Part shown: positions 12,470 through 23,228 of the stretch, in pieces
Position numbering within the stretch: the stretch's first letter is position 1
How the letters are laid out: every line of letters begins with the position of its first letter
From: Tricharina praecox
Lineage: Eukaryota
NCBI RefSeq assembly: GCF_024521635.1
Contig: NW_026250403.1
Span: forward strand, 1,178,001-1,242,000
DNA length: 64,000 nt
Direction of reading: 5' to 3'
The notes under the pieces: generated by a model
What the model was told of the DNA's origin: nothing
The model's database searches: none
The model's input: only the letters and a program-made list of their open reading frames with translations
Translations under genes and position numbers: made by a program

Positions 12470-14712
12470 ATGTCGAGTAATCCCCCCGCCCGTCTCCCAG
12501 AGCTCACAGCTGTGGAAGAAAGCTCGCTAACGCGTCTTTCACAGAAAAGCACTTCATCTCCTCCGACGCCAGCGCGCTCATCATCGCCTCGCTGTGCGGC
12601 GTGGCAGCCTGCCACCCGGGGCTCGTCATCTCCGAATCCGACAAAAGTCCCCCCTCCGCATCCCTCCCGCAATTCCCCGCGCTGACACAATACACGCAGT
12701 TATCTACCGCCCGCCCACCGTCCAAAAAGTCACCCTTCTCTCCGGTGGCGGTAGCGGCCACGAGCCCGCGCACGCAGGATATGTAGGTGAGGGAATGCTC
12801 GACGCCGCCGTCTGCGGCGAGGTCTTTGCGTCGCCGAACGCACGGCAGATAACGACGGGGTTGGAGGCGGTGGCTTCCGACAAAGGGTTTGTCCCTGCTC
12901 TCCCCTCAACGATGGATCCGGGCGCTGACGTGTGGCGGGTGTTAGGACGCTGGTCATCGTGAAGAACTATACTGGTGACAGGCTTAATTTTGCGTTGGCT
13001 GTGGAGAGGGCGAGGGCCCAGGGGAGGAAGATTGAGACTGTTACCGTCGGGGATGATGTGGCGGTGGGGAGGGAGAAGGGGAGTCTGGTGGGGAGACGTG
13101 GACTTGCCGGGACGGTGTTAGTGCATAAAGTTGCGGGGGCGGCGGCAGAGAAGGGGTACACTTCACATGTGACTGGGGCGGTGGTGGTAGTGATGCTAAT
13201 TGTGGATACAGACGGGATCTCAAAAACGTCACCGAGTTGGCGCTGCATGTCGCCAACAATCTTGCGACGGCGGGCGCGAGTCTGGGACACTGCACTATCC
13301 CCGGGCGTGAAGCCGCCAAAGAAGGGAAGGAAGTCGAAGAGGTCGCTGGCCTTGAGATCGGAACGGGAATCCACAACGAGCCCGGGTACAAGCGTATCAA
13401 TCCTATCCCACCGCACCCCGTTCTCATCGCAGAACTGCTATCCCTCTGCCTGGACACGACCGACACCGACCGTTCCTACCTCTTGCGCAAGCCACAAGAC
13501 AAAGTTGTGCTCCTGGTCAACAATCTGGGTGGGCTGAGTAACCTCGAACTCAACGTTCTCGTAGGGGAGACTCTTTCGCAGCTGAACTCCACTTATGGCA
13601 TCACTCCGGCGAGAGTATTCGCCGGGGCTTATGTAACCAGTCTGGATATGCCGGGGTTCAGCATTACGCTGTTGAATCTCCCGGTGGAGGGGGACATCAC
13701 CCCACAAACGGTGCTCGAACTCCTCGACGCGTATACCTCCGCGGTTGGCTGGAATGGGAGTATCAAGTCCGCAGTCTGGACGGCCCCACCGACGGTTGTC
13801 AAAACACCCACTTCTCCCTCCAAAGCGGCGAAACACAAAAAGAAAGATCTGCCGACTATAACATGTACCCACCCCCGCCCTCCCCCACCCCCACCTCACC
13901 CCACCCCATGCAGCCCTACCTACCCCACATATCCAAATCGGGCCGCTAACACCCCCACAGCGGACCCAACCCTAACGTTCCGGATCCTTGCCTCCATCCA
14001 CTCCCAAGTCAGCTCCGCCGAGCCATCGATGACCCACTTCGACACGCTCGTCGGCGACGGAGACTGCGGCACGACCCTCTTCGCCGGCGCCGAGTCCCTC
14101 CTAACCGCACTGATCAACACCTTCAACCTAGTCGAATGCGCGCTCCAAATCGCCACGACGATCGAGACGTCCATGGGCGGCACCTCGGGTGCGCTCTACG
14201 GGATTTTCTTCTCGGCCTTCGCAACCGGGCTCAAGCTGCAAGCACAAGCCGCGAACCAAGCGCAAGCCGCGGACGAAGACCTCTCCTCGCCGCCCACCTC
14301 GCCCATCGCCACCAGCATGCCCGCCATAAACGCCATAACCTCAGCCACGGTCAGCTTTGCGGCCATCGCCACCGCGAGCAGGCACGCGCTGGACACGCTG
14401 ATGAAATATACCCCCGCCCGCGTCGGCGATCGCACGCTGATGGACGCGCTGATCCCGTTCGTGGAGGCGATCCAGGCGCACCACGATGAGGGCGCGAAGG
14501 AGGCCCTGAGACGCGGACTCGAGGCCGCAGAGAAGGGATATGAAGCGACCCGTAAGATGAAGGCAAAGCTGGGACGGGCTAGTTACGTCAATGCTGTGGC
14601 GTTTGAGGGCGAGGGCGTGCCCGATCCGGGTGCGTTGGGGGTGGTGGCTGTGATTAGAGGGATTTTGGAGGGCGTGGAGAAGGAGGAGCGCGGTGGTGAG
14701 TCGGATGAATGA
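12470..14712 (+). CDS. DAK1: Dihydroxyacetone kinase (DhaK+DhaL fused); introns 12477-12544, 12647-12699, 12887-12945, 13156-13211, probably 13865-13960
   Basis: Spliced N-terminus [83 protein letters not shown]. Confidence 0.93.
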
Positions 14713-15040: not shown

Positions 15041-18000
15041 TCACTTCTTCGCAACCAACTCCCTCCTCCTCCCGGCAATCTTGATCCCAGCCGTCCGTCT
15101 GACCACCTCGACGAGCGACCACTCCTTCCCCTTCGTCCTCTCGCGCTTCATAAACCTATCAACAGCGGCACTCTCCTTCCTGCTCAGGACGAGGAATCCC
15201 TTCTCGTCCAGAGCCAGGGACGACACCACCTCCTTGGCCAGTATCCGCTCCGGCCGGTCGAGCAGGACTTTATAGCACTTTGTGGCCTGCGACGGGGAGG
15301 TCGAGGATGAGGAAAGCACCAGGTCCAGGTGACGGTACTCCGCCTTTGACCATACCAGCCCCGAGGGCGCGGTGGAAACCGTCGTTATCTCGTCGAGGAG
15401 CGAGTCGATCAGGGTTTCCTCTCGCGCTTGGGGGGGAGGGGGGGAGGGGCGACTGGATGATGCAGTGGCAGTGGCGGCTTGCTTCTCAAGCATTCGGGGT
15501 GTGGTGCCGGCTGCTGTAGCAGTAGAAGTGGAAGTGCGACTGGACGACGCAACAGTCGCGGGCTTCTTAAACTTCAGTGTGGCAGGAGGCGGCGAGGTCT
15601 CGCGCGCCGAGCGTTCATTGAGTGCGGACTCGGTCTCATCGTCTATTGTGATTGCGCCGACCACTTCAGCCTGGCGACGGACATCGGAGCGCTGGCGGTC
15701 CCACTCCTCCAGCAGCGCTTTGGTGGCGTCGCCTACCAACTGCGAAGTGCTGCTGCCGACTTCCGTTGCGTTCTTGCCAGTCGCTTCGGATTCGACTAGT
15801 GCTGTGCGGTCGGCCGCCCGCTGCCGTGCGTCGATGCTGGTTTCGTCCTCGAAGTGGACGGAGCGGCCGCCGGGGGTGCGGGGGAGCCCAGAGGAGGTCT
15901 GTGCCGATGAAGGAGCATGAACAGGGGCGGGAATCACGGGTTTGCTGGGAGTCCACTTGAACGGGGAGAAGATACGCGCGAGGTAACCTGTCGGTGCTGG
16001 GGGTGACACCTGTGGAAGACTCGACGTCGGACTTGGAATACCCGTAGTGTCAACCGTAGTGTCAACCGTCGGGTATGAAATCTCCTCCTGTCCCGGCTCC
16101 ACATAGCTCTGAGGAAGAGTAGGGTAGGGTCGGGAATCGTCTTGCATCTCGTTGGTCTTATCTTCCTCTTCCTGGCTTTCGGGTGTCGGCGGACCATCGA
16201 AGTCGTTGCCGAACTCTTCTTCGATCATCTGCATGGACTCCTCAACCTCTAGTGCGTCGCTCATGATCTCGCTCGCTTCACGGACGAGAGTGAGATTGGG
16301 TGTTTCACGGTTAGTACGACGTTTGGAGGCGGGGGCATCGGGAATGTCGTCTTCGTGCTCGCGCTTATTGCCCTGCGCTGGGGTGACGATGCTCTGCGCC
16401 TTCTGCGGAGAAGGTATAACGACTCTGAGTGGCGGTGATGACGGGTAGAAACTCTCCTTCTGCGTCGTAGTCTCATCCCCCTGCTTTTGCTTGCCCTTGC
16501 CCTTGTCTCTGGATGTTGAGGAATCCGGCAGCCCGTAGAATGACTCCTGGGTAACAGGATCGTCTTCGAACAGCGGGCTCGCTGCCCTATTCGACGACCG
16601 ATGCTCAGCCTGAGGAGTAAATGATCTTCCAGTCGAGATATAAGAAAAATCGGCTTCGATGGGTTGGAGTAGCTCGTCTGAACGTAATGAAGATACTTCG
16701 TCCATATCCACATCTTCCTCTTCCTCTTCACCCCCCTCCTCCTCATCTGCGCCGTCGTGCAAACCAGTGCCCTCCTGTAGTGTTTTGGATGTATGTAAAG
16801 TTGCGGTAGAGATATACGTCATATCGAGATCGGCCTCCGGTGTATTTCCCGACTGCCACACTGAAGCCGTAGACAAATCTGCCAGCGCCTCTTCTTCGGA
16901 CATGTCCACATCCCCATCCTGTTCCTCCACGGTCCCAAACTGCGCTGTCAAGTCCGTACCATCATCTAGGAATCCGGACCGATCCTCTGGTAGGGCCATT
17001 GAACCCCCCTCACTGACGAGAAAACTCTCCCCAGCCGGGTTGGCAATGTTATCTCCAATGGGCCGATTCGAACCGGCCGATGCAACACTTTCGCCACGTC
17101 TAGAAATCCTACTGCCTTGCACCGACGCCACAGGGGTATTCGATTTCGCGGGCGACGGGGATGCCACCGAGTTCGGATCCCTTCCGGACAGAGCGTGCCT
17201 CTCGCCATTCGACATCGCCGAGGCTGACCTGGTGCTTCTCCTGGGTGTGGATGCCGGGGCCTCGATGTAGGATACGGGTGCAAGAGAAGATCTACGGGAG
17301 CGTGTTGACGCAAGGGTGGGAACCAGGGAAGTTCGTGGGGTCCTCGACTTGCGCCGCTTGCCGGGGGATTTGGAGGCGGATGTTTTCACGGCGGTGGTGT
17401 CCGCTGATAGTGATGAAGCCTTGGATAGAGATGTCAGCTTGAATAATATACGGCAGTGCAAATGCAGTTCTTCCATGTACACCGGTAGCCAGCCCTTGGA
17501 TGCATCCAGCTCCATGGTACGCAGTTCGTGGCTGCTGAGTGGGTCGCCTCGGTATCATGAATCAAGGATGCAAGGGGCAGGAATGTTCCAAGATCCAACT
17601 TGATCATACCCAGCTGAAAGCGGTGATACAAGCAGACATACGGTAACTGCCGAGTCGCAAGATGTGGTCATCGGGATTATGAGACACCCGTCCAGCCGTC
17701 CAGCCGTCCTCTGCGCAAGACAAAAAGCAAGAAAGGTCTTACCTCATGTTTCTCCCCATCGTCCTCCTCATCCACCTCCGCAGCTGTCGCTTTCGCCTTC
17801 ACCAGTGACGCCCTCTTCCATCTAGGGGTAGTGGCCGGTTTCGGTGTGACCGCCGCCTTTCTCGGGGATGTTCCAGCCGTCGATTTCACCACGGGAGTCA
17901 ACCGTCGCGGAGCCGTAGGTGTCGCACGCCTCCCCTTCGGTTTCATCGTCTCACTAGGGGACGAATCCAGCCCCTTGACCGGCACTTTTGTGGTGCGCGT

Positions 18001-18381
18001 CCGCGTAATTACACCCACCGAGCGATCGCGACTCTTTCTCTGGCGCGGGCTCGGCACCACCTCGACGTCCATGCCCTCGCCGGCAAAGCCCAGCGTGAAG
18101 CTCGGTGGTGCCATTCTGCCGCGCTCATCGCCGGAGCCGTCGGAGCCGGAGCCGTCGTCGCGCTCGGCTTCGACCATCACCTTGATTCGCCACGGGGAGA
18201 GGTGCGAGTTGGTGGTGGCCGTCATCTTGGTGGGTGAGTGCACCTGTACGGCGGATGTGCTTCGGGGTTGCGGCGTGCGGAGTGGCTTGGACGGGGAGCG
18301 TGACCGGGAGCGGCGCGAGGGTTCGGCGATGAAGGGGCCCGAAGATAGTGAGAGGGGATCGGGGGAGGAGTTGAACGGCAT
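15041..18381 (-). CDS. Large intrinsically disordered S/T/P/E-rich protein (N-terminal SSPDPL and SPWRIKV motifs, small folded C-terminal domain); splicing between 17404 and 17742 unresolved
   Basis: Two long co-oriented ORFs (17677-18381, 15041-17515) with a GTAAGA donor at 17742. The motifs resemble my recollection of fungal 'AT DNA-binding protein' hypotheticals. Confidence 0.65.
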
Positions 18382-19626
18382 TGTGTTTTTGGATAGCGGT
18401 GGTGGTGGTGTGTTGGCACACGACTAAGCTCGGGTTAAGCTCGAAGGCGACGGCTCTTTGACCCTGTCTGCGATAGTAAAGTATTGACGCGAACCAGGCG
18501 CGTTAATATGGTGCGTATTTTACAGTAGAGGCGTATGTCGAGACTCGCGTATGTCGAGTAATTGTAGCGCGCAGTTAAGTCAGAATCATGTGGTGTGTAG
18601 TGGTGAAGGTTAGGTGGTGGTGGTGGGGGCGTCATACCTTGATTTATTTTGCTTTAGTTGTTGACAGCGCGAGCACAGGGGGGAGCAACTGTTGTCAAGG
18701 CAACGAGTCATGATGAACGATTAGAGTGGTGTTGACAGGGTCGCACACATGCAGGAACCACACTGGTCGAATGGCAATCCCTGCCGAGTTATGGACAGCA
18801 TAAGAAATGGTTCTCTTTACATCTCTTGATCTCTTCTTCCCAGTACATGGTCAACAGAATAGTACTCCATATTCTTGCATTCTGAAGCTGGGGCTTCGTT
18901 TGTGTTTGTCACAATAGTAGGCGATTATGATACCTAAGTACCTATCACCAACAACGCATATTTCGATCTCGAGTTTACGCCGGCCCCGACGTTTCAGCTT
19001 GGGCGATACCGTACGTGGTGGATCTTTGCTTCTATGTGTGGATCTTTGCTTTCACATGTGGATCTACACACATATTGAACGGAGGGTACTTTGGACTTCG
19101 TGTATGTAGACGTTGAGAGCTTGGACCGACATCTCACGCTTTTGTGGGTTGTAATTCGTCGATCTACCGAGTGACGGCACGTGAAGGCCTATATGTGGAA
19201 GGCGATGGATGAGTACTATTCTGAATACTAGCATCATCTCCAGCAGAGATAATATTGATTGGATGACGAGGAATTCGATAGCCGGAAAAAGAACCTGGAA
19301 TCGAGGCTGGAGTCAGCCTGGGGGTTCGGATGAGTCACTGAAAATCAAGACTCGAGCAGGTGACTAGTACCCAGCGCCGAATGATATATAAACGATGAGT
19401 CCCACTTGAAATACCAGCTAGTTTAGAATCGCCATGGCCTTGAATGTGAGAGGAGGAGGAGCAGGAGGGCCATGGGCCCTGTGCTTATATTCACCCTCTC
19501 CCCCACCACCTTCCCCACAACCCCCAACTTCCAGCAAGTACATAGAACTATACACTGCAATACCCAACAGATAACCACTTCCATCCAAAACCACACATTA
19601 CATCACATCACATCACCACAGCCGCT

Positions 19627-20295
19627 ATGGACCAGCTCACAAACCTTACTGCCACAGTCACCACAGCGATCCAGGACGCCGCCGCGATCATCCATAACAC
19701 CGTCCCCAGCAGCAGCAGCATCAAGGCGGCGATCAGCAGCACTGCCACCGCGGTGCACTCCGCCGTCGCCGACACCACCGGCGCCATCCACACCGCCATC
19801 GCCGACACCACCATAGCCATCCACACGGCCGTGCATGACGCCACCAGCGGGCTGCACCCCGCATCCCCCAGCACCGCGGCGCCCTCGCCGACCACACGCA
19901 CGCCCGAGCAGCTCCGCGAGCGGGTAGGCACGTACAAGTACACGCACACATTACAGCAACGACTATCAGAGTACCACGTATTCCGGCGGCTGAATGCGGC
20001 GGGGCACGTGCAGGTGATGCTTGAGACGTCGATCGTGCCGCAGAAGAAGCTGTCGGTGCGCGCGGACCTGCGGTTCGGCGAGTTCGTGTTCCTGGTGCGC
20101 AAGCGACAGCTGCCGAAGGTCCCTGCGTCGACGGCCCTTTGGTGTATGGTCGGCGTGGAACATGAACTGCCACATGTTGCGATGACGATGGCGCAGATTC
20201 ATGCGAGACATGCGGACTTTGATGGGTGGTTGTATGTCGTTGTGAGGGAGGAGACGACGTTCGGGATGGCGTCGGGGGATGAGGGCGGTGACTAA
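19627..20295 (+). CDS. Divergent Atg8-family ubiquitin-like protein with ~100-aa N-terminal 11-mer-repeat extension, intronless, 222 aa
   Basis: aa ~102-213 align by eye to Atg8: KKLSVRADLRFGEFVFLVRKR vs [21 protein letters not shown], and MAQIHARHADFDGWLYVVVREETTFG vs [26 protein letters not shown]. Confidence 0.85.
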   Translation: MDQLTNLTATVTTAIQDAAAIIHNTVPSSSSIKAAISSTATAVHSAVADTTGAIHTAIADTTIAIHTAVHDATSGLHPASPSTAAPSPTTRTPEQLRERVGTYKYTHTLQQRLSEYHVFRRLNAAGHVQVMLETSIVPQKKLSVRADLRFGEFVFLVRKRQLPKVPASTALWCMVGVEHELPHVAMTMAQIHARHADFDGWLYVVVREETTFGMASGDEGGD

Positions 20296-23228
20296 CTGGT
20301 GCTACTGATGGAACGGACAGTGAATACCTAGCTCAATGACCGAGTACAGTTGGTTGTGGGTACGTACTTACATCCTACCTGAAGCTGCCACTCACCCATG
20401 AGCCATCAATGAATAATGCACCGTCGTCCATGGAACACTGCGTTCATAGCTCTTTTTTTTACCACTTCTGCTATCCCCCACGTGCAAGTTTTTGCTATTT
20501 AACACCTGCAACCTGTTTACTCGAATTTCGAAGAGCGAGTGAGAGAAAGAGAGAGAGAGAGCGCGCGAGAAACCATCAATTTACCGCCACATACGGTACG
20601 GCCATACTACCTATTCCACATCAGCCCCGTACCTCCCATCATCCATATGCCATTCCCACCAAGCCCACAGGGGGTGATATCCAAGAGGAAGAATTCCATC
20701 GCCCCCGGTCCGTTGCGATCGAATCGCGCGAGTACCTACATCTTGTGCATACATCGTCGGACTGCAAGAAACGAAGCTTCGACCAGCGCAGCTGCGCAGA
20801 TGGCCCGAGAAGACATTTGATCGCCGACGGGTTCGTTTCTTCAACGGCGGTCCCCCGTTCATGTGTCTGGGTCATTCACGATCGCCGGCTACCGGGCTAG
20901 TTGGGCCTTGGTGGTGATCAGTGATGATCCAGGCGGGTTGCCGACGGATGCCGACGGGACATGCGTGCAAGGGCTCAGGTAGTAGCGATTACTAGGCCGC
21001 TGTGTATGTGGAGTGCCGTTCAGCGTTGCGGTGACCGGCGAGCGGCGGTATGGTGGGACCAAAGTGCGATGGCGGGCAGACCCGATGAGGTCGCTTCAAC
21101 GTTGGAATGTTCTCCGTTGCTTTTTTGTATGTTCGTCTAGTCGGTCGGTCGGTCTCTTGTTCAACACATCAGACCTTATCCACCACCGCAGACATTATTA
21201 TCAATATGTTCAGTCTGGAGATCACAGGCTGCTTTTCTTTCTTGTTGCTTTTAGCCAATTGAATCAGTCTCATCAGTCGTCCACACCAGTCAAGGGTCTC
21301 TCACTAGGTACTCGGCGTAAAGCTTGAGCCGTGGATATTTCGCAGTGGACACTGGAGGGGCGCTCACACCCAGCCTGTGCACGACGATAGTTACATATCG
21401 GAGTGAGTGCCCGTGACCCACGACCCACGACCCATGCCACCCGCCCACCCGGTAACACTGATCGTGAGGCTCGGACTGCTCTACAACTAGCACTGTGCTC
21501 AGCCCGGCATCTGACTCTTCTCGAAATTGCCTCCGAGGCACTGTTTGCCAGCGGCATTGTTTCAATATCCTACATATAGGTATGTCGGCGCAGTTTAGAC
21601 TTCAGCGTAGAGGATTCCACAGCCCCACTGTTAGTTGTCGTCGCCGCCCTGTACGTAGTTGTCCGTGGAAGACGGCGCGGCGGCGTCTCCGTTGCAGTGC
21701 AGCGTTCCACATGGCTTCGGGGCATGCGCAGTGCACATGTTCAGCAGAAGCACCGAACCACCGCTTACTCTATGTCGTGCGCATCGCAGACTCGTACGAC
21801 TCGTGCATACCGGCAGTTACATATGTAACTACCCCTGCCACATCTTGCTCGGCGAGTGCGCACTGGAGGTTTGGAGAGAGGGTGACTAAGCTGATCACCA
21901 GCATCCGGCATGGGATGGAAGGATGTTCCTCCGCGCCCGATGCATAGAATCGGAGATATGTGCGACGAACAAACGGATATCTTTCCGCTCCAGTCTCCAG
22001 CAATGTCAGCACCTACCGCTGCAGTGGATGCTTTCGCTGCGGGGGAGGCGACGAATCACACATCGCAGTTGCTGGTGTGAGGGATGGATGGTGGTTTGGT
22101 AATGGTAATGGTAACGGTAGATAATCCTTCGAGAAGCGTATGCAGATACTTTCTTGGTTATGTGCGACATCTACCGTACTTCCCCGTGGTCGTATTGTTT
22201 GCTGCTGCCTGATGAAATTCCGCAAGGTGTGTATGTAGGCAACATCACCTCTCCAGGGTCTGTGCCTTATGTTGCTTCTATATAGCACATCCCGTACACA
22301 CTGTCGACGCCACTAACTACTAGATAACTAGTATTTGTGCATGGATACCGTAGATGGTTCAGGGCTGACGAAATCGCACGGTGGGGTTTCCCCACACTGC
22401 CCGGTCGAGCAACGGCAATCTTCTGCAGACGCCCGTATCGCCGCATCGGAAGGGAAGCCATCAGCACTCCACATTTCGTACATAGGTGGCACATATCAGC
22501 GACAACTCTGAGGACCGGGCGAGCGTGAAACAGCCTCCCAGCCTGCCTACCACGACGAACCGTCCCACTTCCTGCGTAACTACAGATCGTCACCTTCGAC
22601 GTGTGGCCCTCTAGGGGGGACCCCGGAATCTGTTGCTTGTGGCTGTGCAGAATCCCCCGACTTCCTCGCCTCGTGCATGGAATCGAAGCCATAGCCTGCC
22701 ACCCTGCCACCCTGCCACCCCACATCCCTCCCCCGCCTCAGCTCCCCGGCCTCCTAAGACGGAGTGGTCGGCGCCCAGCCGCATGGGCTTTGTGATCCCT
22801 CCTCAATGAGCCGTCTGTCTGATCCCCACCTGCAATATTCCATCACTGTCAGACTCGATTCGACATCCCAACGACAAGCCGAAAAGAAGAAGAAGACGGA
22901 GAAAAGGAAGGACTGACTCGAATTCAGCACAGCGACTTCTGTAACCACTGTAACCAACAAAAATACCCATACAACGACGATCCTGCTAGTACATCCGCAG
23001 CCCAGCCCCTCAAACTGGATCCACTGCACCAGATACATGGACGGTCCGGTCCGCCTCGCCAGCAGGTGCCTCGCCAACTAACCGAATCGTGACCGCGACT
23101 CGCAAAACAGCATACCAAAGCTAAAAATCAATATCTCGGCGGCGACCACCCGACGACGTCGTCTGCAGCAAGACGAACCTGATTTCCCCCGAACCCTTGC
23201 CCCGATTCGGCCTGTGCTTGGCGCCGCT

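Follow-up and report, generated by a model that had tools for sequence, protein, structure and literature searches.

What a run of 11-residue repeats is doing in front of an Atg8 fold is the question raised by a gene in a 64,000-nucleotide (nt) stretch of the Tricharina praecox genome (contig NW_026250403.1, positions 1,178,001 to 1,242,000; hereafter the window). The gene encodes a divergent Atg8-family protein of 222 amino acids (aa), P0001, whose repeats a preliminary description of the locus had read as an amphipathic helix of perilipin or synuclein type. The extension carrying the repeats is almost certainly translated, from M1, and the repeats themselves are confirmed, with the caveat that they comprise three clear units together with degenerate ones. 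The most likely function of the extension, put forward tentatively, is to bind lipid surfaces weakly as a helix that works together with the lipidated domain, either in cis or in trans. Amino acid numbers below refer to the 222-aa open reading frame (ORF) product and nucleotide positions to the whole window, in which the gene is laid out as follows.

19627 to 20295, plus strand: intronless coding sequence of the 222-aa divergent Atg8-family protein P0001, stop codon included (ORF translation, Pfam ATG8).
19627 to 19704, plus strand: first 26 codons, holding the conserved start and N-terminal helix 1 with the degenerate unit TVTTAIQDAAA (ortholog comparison; AlphaFold2 helix at aa 2-25).
19717 to 19848, plus strand: four in-register 11-residue units, aa 31-74 (register; AlphaFold2 helix at aa 30-74, predicted local distance difference test (pLDDT) 81-88).
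19756 to 19830, plus strand: 33-nt tandem DNA repeat, the core of a recent duplication (Tandem Repeats Finder).
19849 to 19905, plus strand: flexible Pro/Ser/Thr/Ala-rich linker, aa 75-93 (composition; AlphaFold2 pLDDT 51-67, without secondary structure over aa 75-92).
19906 to 20265, plus strand: complete Atg8 fold, aa 94-213, ending in Phe212-Gly213 (AlphaFold2, Foldseek, VIA-align, ortholog identity, alignment).
20266 to 20292, plus strand: C-terminal tail MASGDEGGD after Phe-Gly, presumed to be a peptide removable by Atg4 (variable tail, invariant Phe-Gly).

Membership of the Atg8 family is indicated by profile, structure and residue comparisons alike. The Pfam ATG8 model (PF02991) aligns aa 138-213 with positions 33-104 of its 104 (E 2.3e-10, 41 bits against a cut-off of 27), while the remaining Pfam rows at E <= 1, DUF7353 and FIVAR, both fall far under their cut-offs; phmmer against the PDB matched Atg8 structures at E 1e-9, and the protein atlas, queried with the whole protein, returned Atg8 clusters alone, at 0.85. 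An AlphaFold2 model built on a 13-sequence alignment (mean pLDDT 82.8 for the whole protein) predicts, in the 93-aa extension that precedes the fold, helices at aa 2-25 and 30-74 (block means 76-88) and an unstructured stretch at aa 75-92 (block means 51-67). The Atg8 fold that follows (aa 101-210, pLDDT 88-97) comprises helices at 103-106 and 109-122 and then a beta-beta-alpha-beta-alpha-beta core, so modelled as to keep both of the family-specific N-terminal helices ahead of the ubiquitin-like core. Foldseek matched this model to Atg8/GABARAP structures at a template modelling (TM) score, on the target, of about 0.8 (E 3.5e-9 and below), and VIA-align to an Atg8 structure with Z 16.4 and a root-mean-square deviation (rmsd) of 1.9 for 104 residues aligned over model positions 101-210. 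The repeats are fused to this domain as first described, in one exon and one frame, with the C-terminal Phe-Gly kept.

Atg8-family proteins are defined by a Gly that follows an aromatic residue, is exposed by Atg4 and is conjugated to phosphatidylethanolamine (PE). In P0001 the corresponding F212 and G213 are invariant in an alignment of Atg8-type sequences (13/13), and the 9-residue tail behind them differs between orthologs (MASGDEGGD here, RPATPGARHG in P0002). Substrates of Atg4 are expected to end in this way, with a short tail beyond Phe-Gly, and the protein would presumably undergo such processing, to judge from its sequence.

The repeat region at 19654-19857 corresponds to aa 10-77 in the ORF frame, running from TVTTAIQDAAA to SGLH. 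Four units, SIKAAISSTAT (aa 31-41), AVHSAVADTTG (42-52), AIHTAIADTTI (53-63) and AIHTAVHDATS (64-74), stand in exact 11-residue register, as had been claimed, and the last of them continues into GLHPASPSTAAPSPTTRTP. Identity at a lag of 11 residues over aa 1-93 is 20, compared with 9.78 +/- 2.78 in 5000 shuffles (fraction reaching 20, 0.0002), and at a lag of 22 it is 16. Two degenerate units lie upstream, TVTTAIQDAAA (aa 10-20) and IIHNTVPSSS (aa 21-30, one residue short); the former had rightly been recognised as related, and the pattern is kept across them with a one-residue phase slip. At the DNA level the 33-nt repeats are visible as claimed, most clearly over aa 42-74: 2.3 copies with a period of 33 nt were detected at 19756-19830 by Tandem Repeats Finder (score 108, 85% matches), and the units at 42-52, 53-63 and 64-74 share 6-7 of 11 residues and 22-25 of 33 nt pairwise, whereas SIKAAISSTAT is weaker against these three, at 2-4/11 aa and 14-18/33 nt. 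The whole of aa 1-93 contains no F, W or Y, and the repeats give way to the Pro/Ser-containing linker at aa 75-93, both in keeping with the preliminary description. Searched for in the six-frame translation of the window, the unit motif occurs three times, in each case within this Atg8-like gene.

Whether the repeats are part of the protein at all depends on where translation starts. A public protein record of 92 aa (P0003, in NCBI and UniRef) is identical to aa 131-222 (window 20017-20295), and on that model the repeats would be 5' untranslated region and translation would start at M131. This alternative is very improbable. The record itself is in its favour, as is the circumstance that a plus-strand mRNA starting at or before 19448 would place an out-of-frame ATG at 19472, opening 114 codons, before M1. 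A start at M131, however, would delete both N-terminal helices and part of strand beta-1, M131 aligning with Ile32 (strand beta-1) of canonical Atg8, although aa 94-130, which supply the first two helices and the first strand of the fold, are conserved with the syntenic ortholog P0002 (78% identity over aa 94-213). The ortholog's own gene model begins at the homologous M1, its ORF starting MEQLTELTAALGTALQGAAAAVADAV where that of T. praecox starts MDQLTNLTATVTTAIQDAAAIIHNTV (MEQLTELTAA versus MDQLTNLTAT). Over the first 26 residues the two are identical at 14/26 positions, with a ratio of nonsynonymous to synonymous substitution rates (omega) of 0.335 and an ungapped BLOSUM62 score of 65, as against -7.7 +/- 9.7 in shuffles. 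The GC content at third codon positions (GC3) of the extension is 0.88 in frame and 0.55 and 0.63 in the other frames. The Met at aa 1 is followed only by that at aa 131, with no in-frame ATG between them, and no upstream ATG is found in the 154 nt before 19627 or in the 287 nt before the ortholog start. On account of the N-terminal conservation, the in-frame GC3, the Met spacing and the conserved aa 94-130, the P0003 model is most likely truncated, beginning inside strand beta-1 and missing the extension and both N-terminal helices. The circumstance that could have undone the first description, a translation start downstream of the repeats, is thus contradicted by the ortholog's conservation and by the absence of an in-frame ATG between M1 and M131.

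Contigs of two public runs (X1 and X2) follow 19439-20304 colinearly, cover the repeats and show no joint within the ORF; they are taken to be RNA-like because an intron of 63 or 67 nt is removed in some of them. They carry no strand information, so that they give neither the start nor the strand of transcription over the ORF. A 114-codon ORF (19472-19816, plus strand, frame +1 relative to the gene), whose ATG is flanked by G at -3 and +4, overlaps the gene start; its ATG lies inside the region of the RNA-like contigs, which start at 19439 and 19448, and, if present in the mRNA, could act as an inhibitory upstream ORF. At the other end, 20304 is joined to 20372 in contigs of both runs and to 20368 in one contig. 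The skipped piece 20305-20371 reads CT..AC on the plus strand and is thus a GT..AG intron on the minus strand (5' site GTAAGT or GTACGT). It follows that the Atg8-like gene is overlapped at its 3' end, and perhaps within its coding region, by a spliced transcript of the minus strand that extends at least from 20000 to beyond 20500. This transcript shows no convincing minus-strand ORF and may represent either natural antisense RNA or the last part of a convergent gene. The gene is bordered by simple repeats on both sides, a (CACAT)n tract at 19594-19616 (4.6 copies, Tandem Repeats Finder) just 5' of the start codon and a (GA)n tract at 20540-20562 downstream.

In this lineage, tandem duplication of the 33-nt unit has lengthened the extension into an aromatic-free helix of about 70 residues, rich in Ala, Thr, Ile, Val and His (as predicted by AlphaFold2), which a Pro/Ser linker of 18 residues joins to a complete Atg8 fold with its C-terminal Phe-Gly. 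On the reading that is tentatively favoured here, the 11/3 helix would adsorb to lipid surfaces weakly and reversibly through a core stripe of Ile and Val flanked by Thr and Ala, with His or Lys at one polar/apolar boundary and Asp at the other, and would thereby provide a second, low-affinity lipid contact for the lipidated ubiquitin-like domain. This contact could be made in cis, with the membrane that carries the conjugate, as reported for human ATG8 N-termini, or alternatively in trans, with a lipid droplet or another surface of neutral lipid or low charge. Protonation of the His residues would cancel the net negative charge, and binding could become stronger as the pH falls.

The physical character of the helix is consistent with such a role. 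An 11/3 wheel of the four in-register units gathers A, A, T, I/V, I/V and T on one face and H (K in SIKAAISSTAT), A/H, a variable residue, T/S and D on the opposite one. The hydrophobic moment (muH, computed on the Fauchere-Pliska scale at 98.18 degrees) of aa 31-74 is 0.284, compared with 0.095 +/- 0.048 in free shuffles (fraction 0.0002), and the best 22-aa window within the region of N-terminal helix 1 reaches 0.38-0.42. The composition of aa 10-74 is 0.46 hydrophobic, 0 aromatic, 0.077 charged and 0.32 Thr plus Ser, with a net charge of -3 (5 His, 4 Asp, 1 Lys and 0 Arg) and 16 Ala among 65 residues (25%). According to a study of the droplet-binding repeat helix of Plin4, that protein has a muH of 0.257, a hydrophobic fraction of 0.35, an aromatic fraction of 0.002 and a charged fraction of 0.15, is enriched in Thr, Gly and Val, and binds droplets more strongly after Thr-to-Val changes (PMC5889406). 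By this comparison the P0001 helix falls in the physical range of weak droplet-binding helices, being more hydrophobic than Plin4 but short, acidic and poor in Lys.

Several observations weigh against lipid binding, some of them physical and others drawn from relatives and taken up below with the rival explanations that they favour. Because an 11-residue periodicity by itself produces power at the harmonics of 360/11 degrees, free shuffles are too lenient a comparison, and a period-preserving control is needed in which an identical column permutation is applied to all units; of 20000 such permutations (mean 0.179 +/- 0.083), 11.8% reach the observed muH, so that the amphipathic pattern, although coherent, does not stand out statistically. 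High values are also seen for harmonics 2 and 5, at 0.202 (65.5 degrees) and 0.237 (163.6 degrees). Residues 1-74 bear a net charge of -4, with one Lys and no Arg, and with His taken as neutral none of the 58 windows of 18 aa exceeds 0.68 in a HeliQuest-type discriminant D; with His protonated 12 of the 58 do so, and still no window reaches 1.34. The wheel and moment by which the helix was to be recognised give a divided answer, the faces being coherent while the moment is modest and no window passes with neutral His. In the Plin4 study, 66 aa of that protein are cytosolic and at least 132 aa are needed for droplet binding, and a 132-aa construct becomes cytosolic once its net charge is reversed to negative (PMC5889406). 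The lack of strand information in the RNA-like contigs and the spliced minus-strand transcript that overlaps the gene also count on this side.

Classification among the known lipid-binding repeats is similarly mixed. No Perilipin row occurs among the 3 Pfam rows at E <= 1, the protein atlas queried with aa 1-92 gave no usable match to suggest perilipin homology, and no Apolipoprotein or Synuclein row is found in Pfam at E <= 1. The 11-mers of class A apolipoproteins and alpha-synuclein have Lys or Arg at the polar-apolar boundary and acidic residues at the centre of the polar face; here the boundary residue is His in 3/4 units and Lys in 1/4, and the arm thus differs from that class. Of the perilipin/synuclein-type helix originally proposed, the 11-residue periodicity, the predicted helix and the Plin4-like composition stand, while the modest moment, the net negative charge, the single Lys and the lack of Arg do not fit it.

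The syntenic ortholog brings in a second explanation, which is possible but, on the whole, unlikely: that the repeats are a neutral or nearly neutral low-complexity expansion of a slippage-duplicated 33-nt unit in a fast-evolving spacer, and that the helix prediction reflects an Ala-rich composition, the repeats themselves contributing no particular function. The left flank of the ortholog locus is syntenic with that of P0001 (L002 1-1415 against window 17003-18381, 72% nt identity), and the ortholog keeps the first two degenerate units, yet it lacks the His-type units and has GEQGAAAAGAAGVAATTV in their place, while from the end of the syntenic left flank up to codon 94 the DNA of the two species cannot be aligned by blastn. 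It is because of the missing units and the unalignable DNA that the repeats are regarded as a lineage-specific expansion in a fast-evolving extension, and their number is recent and lineage-specific rather than a defining trait of the family, as far as sequence comparison tells. A neutral origin is also favoured by the AlphaFold2 model of the distant clade member P0004, whose extension is predicted to be disordered (pLDDT 41-45) apart from a lone helix at 64-73, by an amphipathicity no higher than the period-preserving control allows, and by the recent origin implied by 2.3 DNA copies at 85%. Set against this are the purifying selection on the first 26 residues noted above; the divergence of the units at synonymous and nonsynonymous sites alike, through which they have nonetheless kept I/V at positions 2 and 6, a basic residue or His at position 3 and Asp at position 8; the fairly high AlphaFold2 confidence of the helix (76-88); and a weakly charged 22-aa window with a muH of 0.31-0.40 in the extension of all four clade members examined. 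A clade-wide conservation of a helical amphipathic extension is not claimed, since the P0004 extension is predicted to be disordered.

Resemblances outside the Atg8 family point in a third direction. In a phmmer search of 1.84 billion representatives, the repeat region (query aa 4-80) was matched by 4 of the 150 listed proteins (P0065, P0066, P0085 and P0102, E 4e-5 to 1.4e-4), and three of these four (P0065, P0066 and P0085) carry an 11-mer motif, e.g., AIRTALVDTAS, DVHSAIEQTAS and SIRSEVYTSSS. Pfam identifies P0065 and P0066 as Gp58-like tail proteins of phages (E 2.3e-24 and 1.1e-13). The two also score 72.7 and 46.6 bits with the Apolipoprotein A1/A4/E model, below its cut-off of 90, and against the ApoLp-III model (cut-off 36.3) P0065 scores 35.3 bits, just below, and P0066 41.3 bits, above. 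The motif x-hydrophobic-[R/H]-[S/T]-A-hydrophobic-x-[D/Q]-T is also found in phage Gp58-like proteins and in a bacterial surface-type repeat protein, which are not lipid binders. Phage tail proteins of the Gp58-like kind are generally taken to be fibrous oligomers. Since the pattern is common to fibrous oligomeric proteins and lipid-binding helices, a hendecad coiled-coil stalk has to be considered, in which the units would self-associate as a dimer, trimer or tetramer and make the Atg8 domain multivalent for clustering or tethering.

Such a stalk is improbable, less likely than the neutral expansion. The shared motif of the phage proteins would support it to the extent that their fibrous oligomeric state, itself assigned by kind, extends to this helix, and the arrangement of a basic residue at b and an acidic one at g flanking a small-residue core would suit interhelical pairing. 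VIA-align also matched aa 1-90 to the hyperactive type I antifreeze protein Maxi (4ke2; Z 8.3, rmsd 5.4, 24% identity), a four-helix bundle of 11-mers, though below the line at which caution is advised. In hendecad coiled coils, hydrophobic residues occupy positions a, d, e and h of each 11-residue unit. In the four units here, a is I/V/I/I and e is I/V/I/V, while d is A in 4/4 and h is T/T/T/A, so that each unit offers two large hydrophobics per 11 and small or polar residues, Ala and Thr, fill half of the would-be core. The phage and bacterial matches are weak and likely reflect composition and periodicity rather than homology, and the helix is broken at aa 26-29 (VPSS), where the one-residue phase slip falls. 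A three-copy homo-oligomer prediction for aa 1-78 scored 0.01 against a mark of 0.32, with the partner fold itself uncertain, and counts neither for nor against self-association.

VIA-align further matched aa 1-74 (Z 8.0, rmsd 1.3 over 74 residues) to PhaP (5ip0), a phasin that forms the coat of hydrophobic storage granules, those of polyhydroxyalkanoate (PHA). The matched helices of PhaP and Maxi are long and Ala-rich. Both this match and that to Maxi are leads only, indicating a common shape, because a Z under about 13 calls for caution with long helices; the rmsd of 1.3 to phasin nevertheless suggests that the modelled arm is a nearly straight helix and not a hairpin. A type I antifreeze role was also considered. 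Type I antifreeze proteins have Ala above about 60% and Thr at 11-residue spacing, and Maxi has an 11-residue Thr/Ala periodicity. This role was rejected in view of the Ala content of the P0001 arm (25%, 16/65 over aa 10-74) and the weak structural score, despite the Thr periodicity.

Weak lipid binding, the preferred reading, includes as a special case the model first proposed for this gene, a two-ended, receptor-independent lipophagy tether with the helix on a lipid droplet, the Gly213-PE conjugate on a phagophore or vacuole and the His residues as a pH switch. Although physically plausible in view of the Plin4-like composition, this special case is doubtful to a high degree. It inherits the evidence for weak lipid binding, and a negative or neutral charge and a Thr/Ala/Val/Ile face would suit droplet monolayers better than anionic bilayers; the modelled flexible linker of 18 residues would permit binding in trans. 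It inherits the counter-evidence as well, and its 45-70 residues are short compared with the at least 132 aa that Plin4 needs (PMC5889406). In its fullest form, as an Atg8 of a small fungal clade that would serve as a self-contained two-anchor bridge, with a C-terminal lipid conjugate and a His-gated 11/3 helix adsorbing to lipid droplets or to other surfaces rich in packing defects, and would, with its AIM pockets remodelled, deliver neutral-lipid stores to the vacuole or phagophore without a cargo receptor, the helix having been lengthened here to raise avidity, the proposal is equally remote.

The tether model had also been offered as an explanation for the loss of the pocket that binds the Atg8-interacting motif (AIM), also called the LC3-interacting region (LIR), and this site, with its docking pockets HP1 and HP2, was examined by alignment to the canonical fungal Atg8 core, to which P0001 is 31% identical. 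Pocket residues were taken, in LC3B numbering, from a published account (PMC7615515) and are given here in yeast numbering. The residues equivalent to E17, K48, V51 and F60 are retained. Conservative substitutions are found at five positions (I21 to F, I32 to M, V63 to L, I64 to V, F104 to W) and other substitutions at four (P30 to Q, L50 to S, P52 to R, Y49 to L). The cargo-binding site thus appears, from the alignment, to be remodelled but not demonstrably lost, so that the loss claimed at first is borne out in part at most, a state that counts against the tether model.

Relatives of the protein are few. HMMER against the same 1.84 billion representatives gave 196 matches at E <= 1e-3 and three at E <= 1e-10, namely P0003 (92 aa), P0004 (199 aa, 32%) and P0005 (173 aa, 38%). 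A word-based search gave one close relative, the 1 match among 564 candidates: the 178-aa P0002, whose Atg8 domain evolves under an omega of 0.144 relative to P0001 over 120 codons. A profile of six clade members retrieved 12 proteins at E <= 1e-8 from 8000 candidates, with a comparable extension in P0002 and P0004 only, and a metagenome scan found the ortholog in 2 loci of 150 pattern matches, with identical coding sequences. The gene is accordingly a rare, fast-evolving and highly divergent Atg8 paralogue. Fungi are generally taken to have a single, highly conserved Atg8, and the status of this gene as a paralogue beside a canonical ATG8 is presumed on that ground; tblastn with the canonical Atg8 core found no second Atg8 in the window and matched this gene alone. 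Full-text literature searches listed no paper with a title or abstract opening about an Atg8 that bears 11-mer repeats at its N-terminus, nor one about a second, divergent Atg8 in a fungus.

Upstream of the gene, a dihydroxyacetone kinase gene lies at 13129-14712 on the plus strand; its relatives carry Dak1/Dak2 Pfam domains, and the best named among them are from Wilcoxina mikolae (56%) and Pyronema omphalodes (49%), from which the window would most likely belong to a Pezizomycete. It is followed on the minus strand by an open frame of 837 codons (15041-17554) that is rich in Ser, Thr, Pro and Glu and apparently of low complexity, the 5' part and upstream region of which (17003-18381) supply the synteny with the ortholog locus.

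The locus presents a presumably second, strongly divergent gene of Atg8 fold that keeps the Phe-Gly of the conjugation site, with altered cargo pockets and an added helical repeat arm, and its analysis corrects a truncated gene model in the databases. Should the arm bind lipid surfaces, no earlier Atg8 would have had a second membrane anchor of its own, and the protein would offer a simple natural test of the influence that the length of an amphipathic helix and the arrangement of its His and Asp residues have on the choice of organelle. Should the arm be neutral, the locus still illustrates the origin of long helices in coding DNA through tandem slippage of a 33-nt unit.

Among known systems, the phage Gp58-like tail proteins and the bacterial repeat protein (P0065, P0066 and P0085) have the motif x-I/V-[R/H]-[S/T]-A-I/L/V-x-[D/Q]-T-A/T-S/G in common with P0001, but they are proteins of 920-1525 aa with dozens of units, of prokaryotic or phage origin and without an Atg8 domain, and the similarity is weak (E about 1e-4) and probably convergent. 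Plin4 shares with P0001 an 11/33-residue periodicity, richness in Thr, freedom from aromatics, a weak muH (0.257 against 0.284 here) and a predicted 3-11 helix (PMC5889406). It differs in its length (968 residues against 44-65 here), its higher charged fraction (0.15 against 0.077), its lower Ile content, and its three Lys and two acidic residues per 33-mer, where P0001 is net negative with one Lys.

With canonical fungal Atg8 (S. cerevisiae, PDB 2zpn/3vxw; Magnaporthe oryzae MoAtg8, PDB 9j5g) the protein shares the fold (Foldseek TM on the target about 0.8, VIA-align Z 14-16), the C-terminal Phe-Gly followed by a short tail, and the Lys equivalent to K48; it is set apart by the 93-aa N-terminal extension, by the loss of 6 residues from the beta-1/beta-2 loop and by 4 residues inserted behind helix 3. 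That an Atg8 fold can take on a non-canonical function has a precedent in the divergent apicomplexan Atg8, for which a non-autophagic role is described; this protein belongs to a different lineage and, in the available part of the report, has no N-terminal repeat extension (PMC9973341). A further parallel is offered by the N-termini of human LC3/GABARAP, whose reported cis-membrane association, as far as the available part of that study describes it, would likewise give the protein a membrane contact besides its C-terminal lipid anchor (PMC10289813). In the human proteins this contact is proposed for the native short N-terminus, whereas in P0001 it would be made by an additional helix, about 70 residues long and flexibly linked to the fold.

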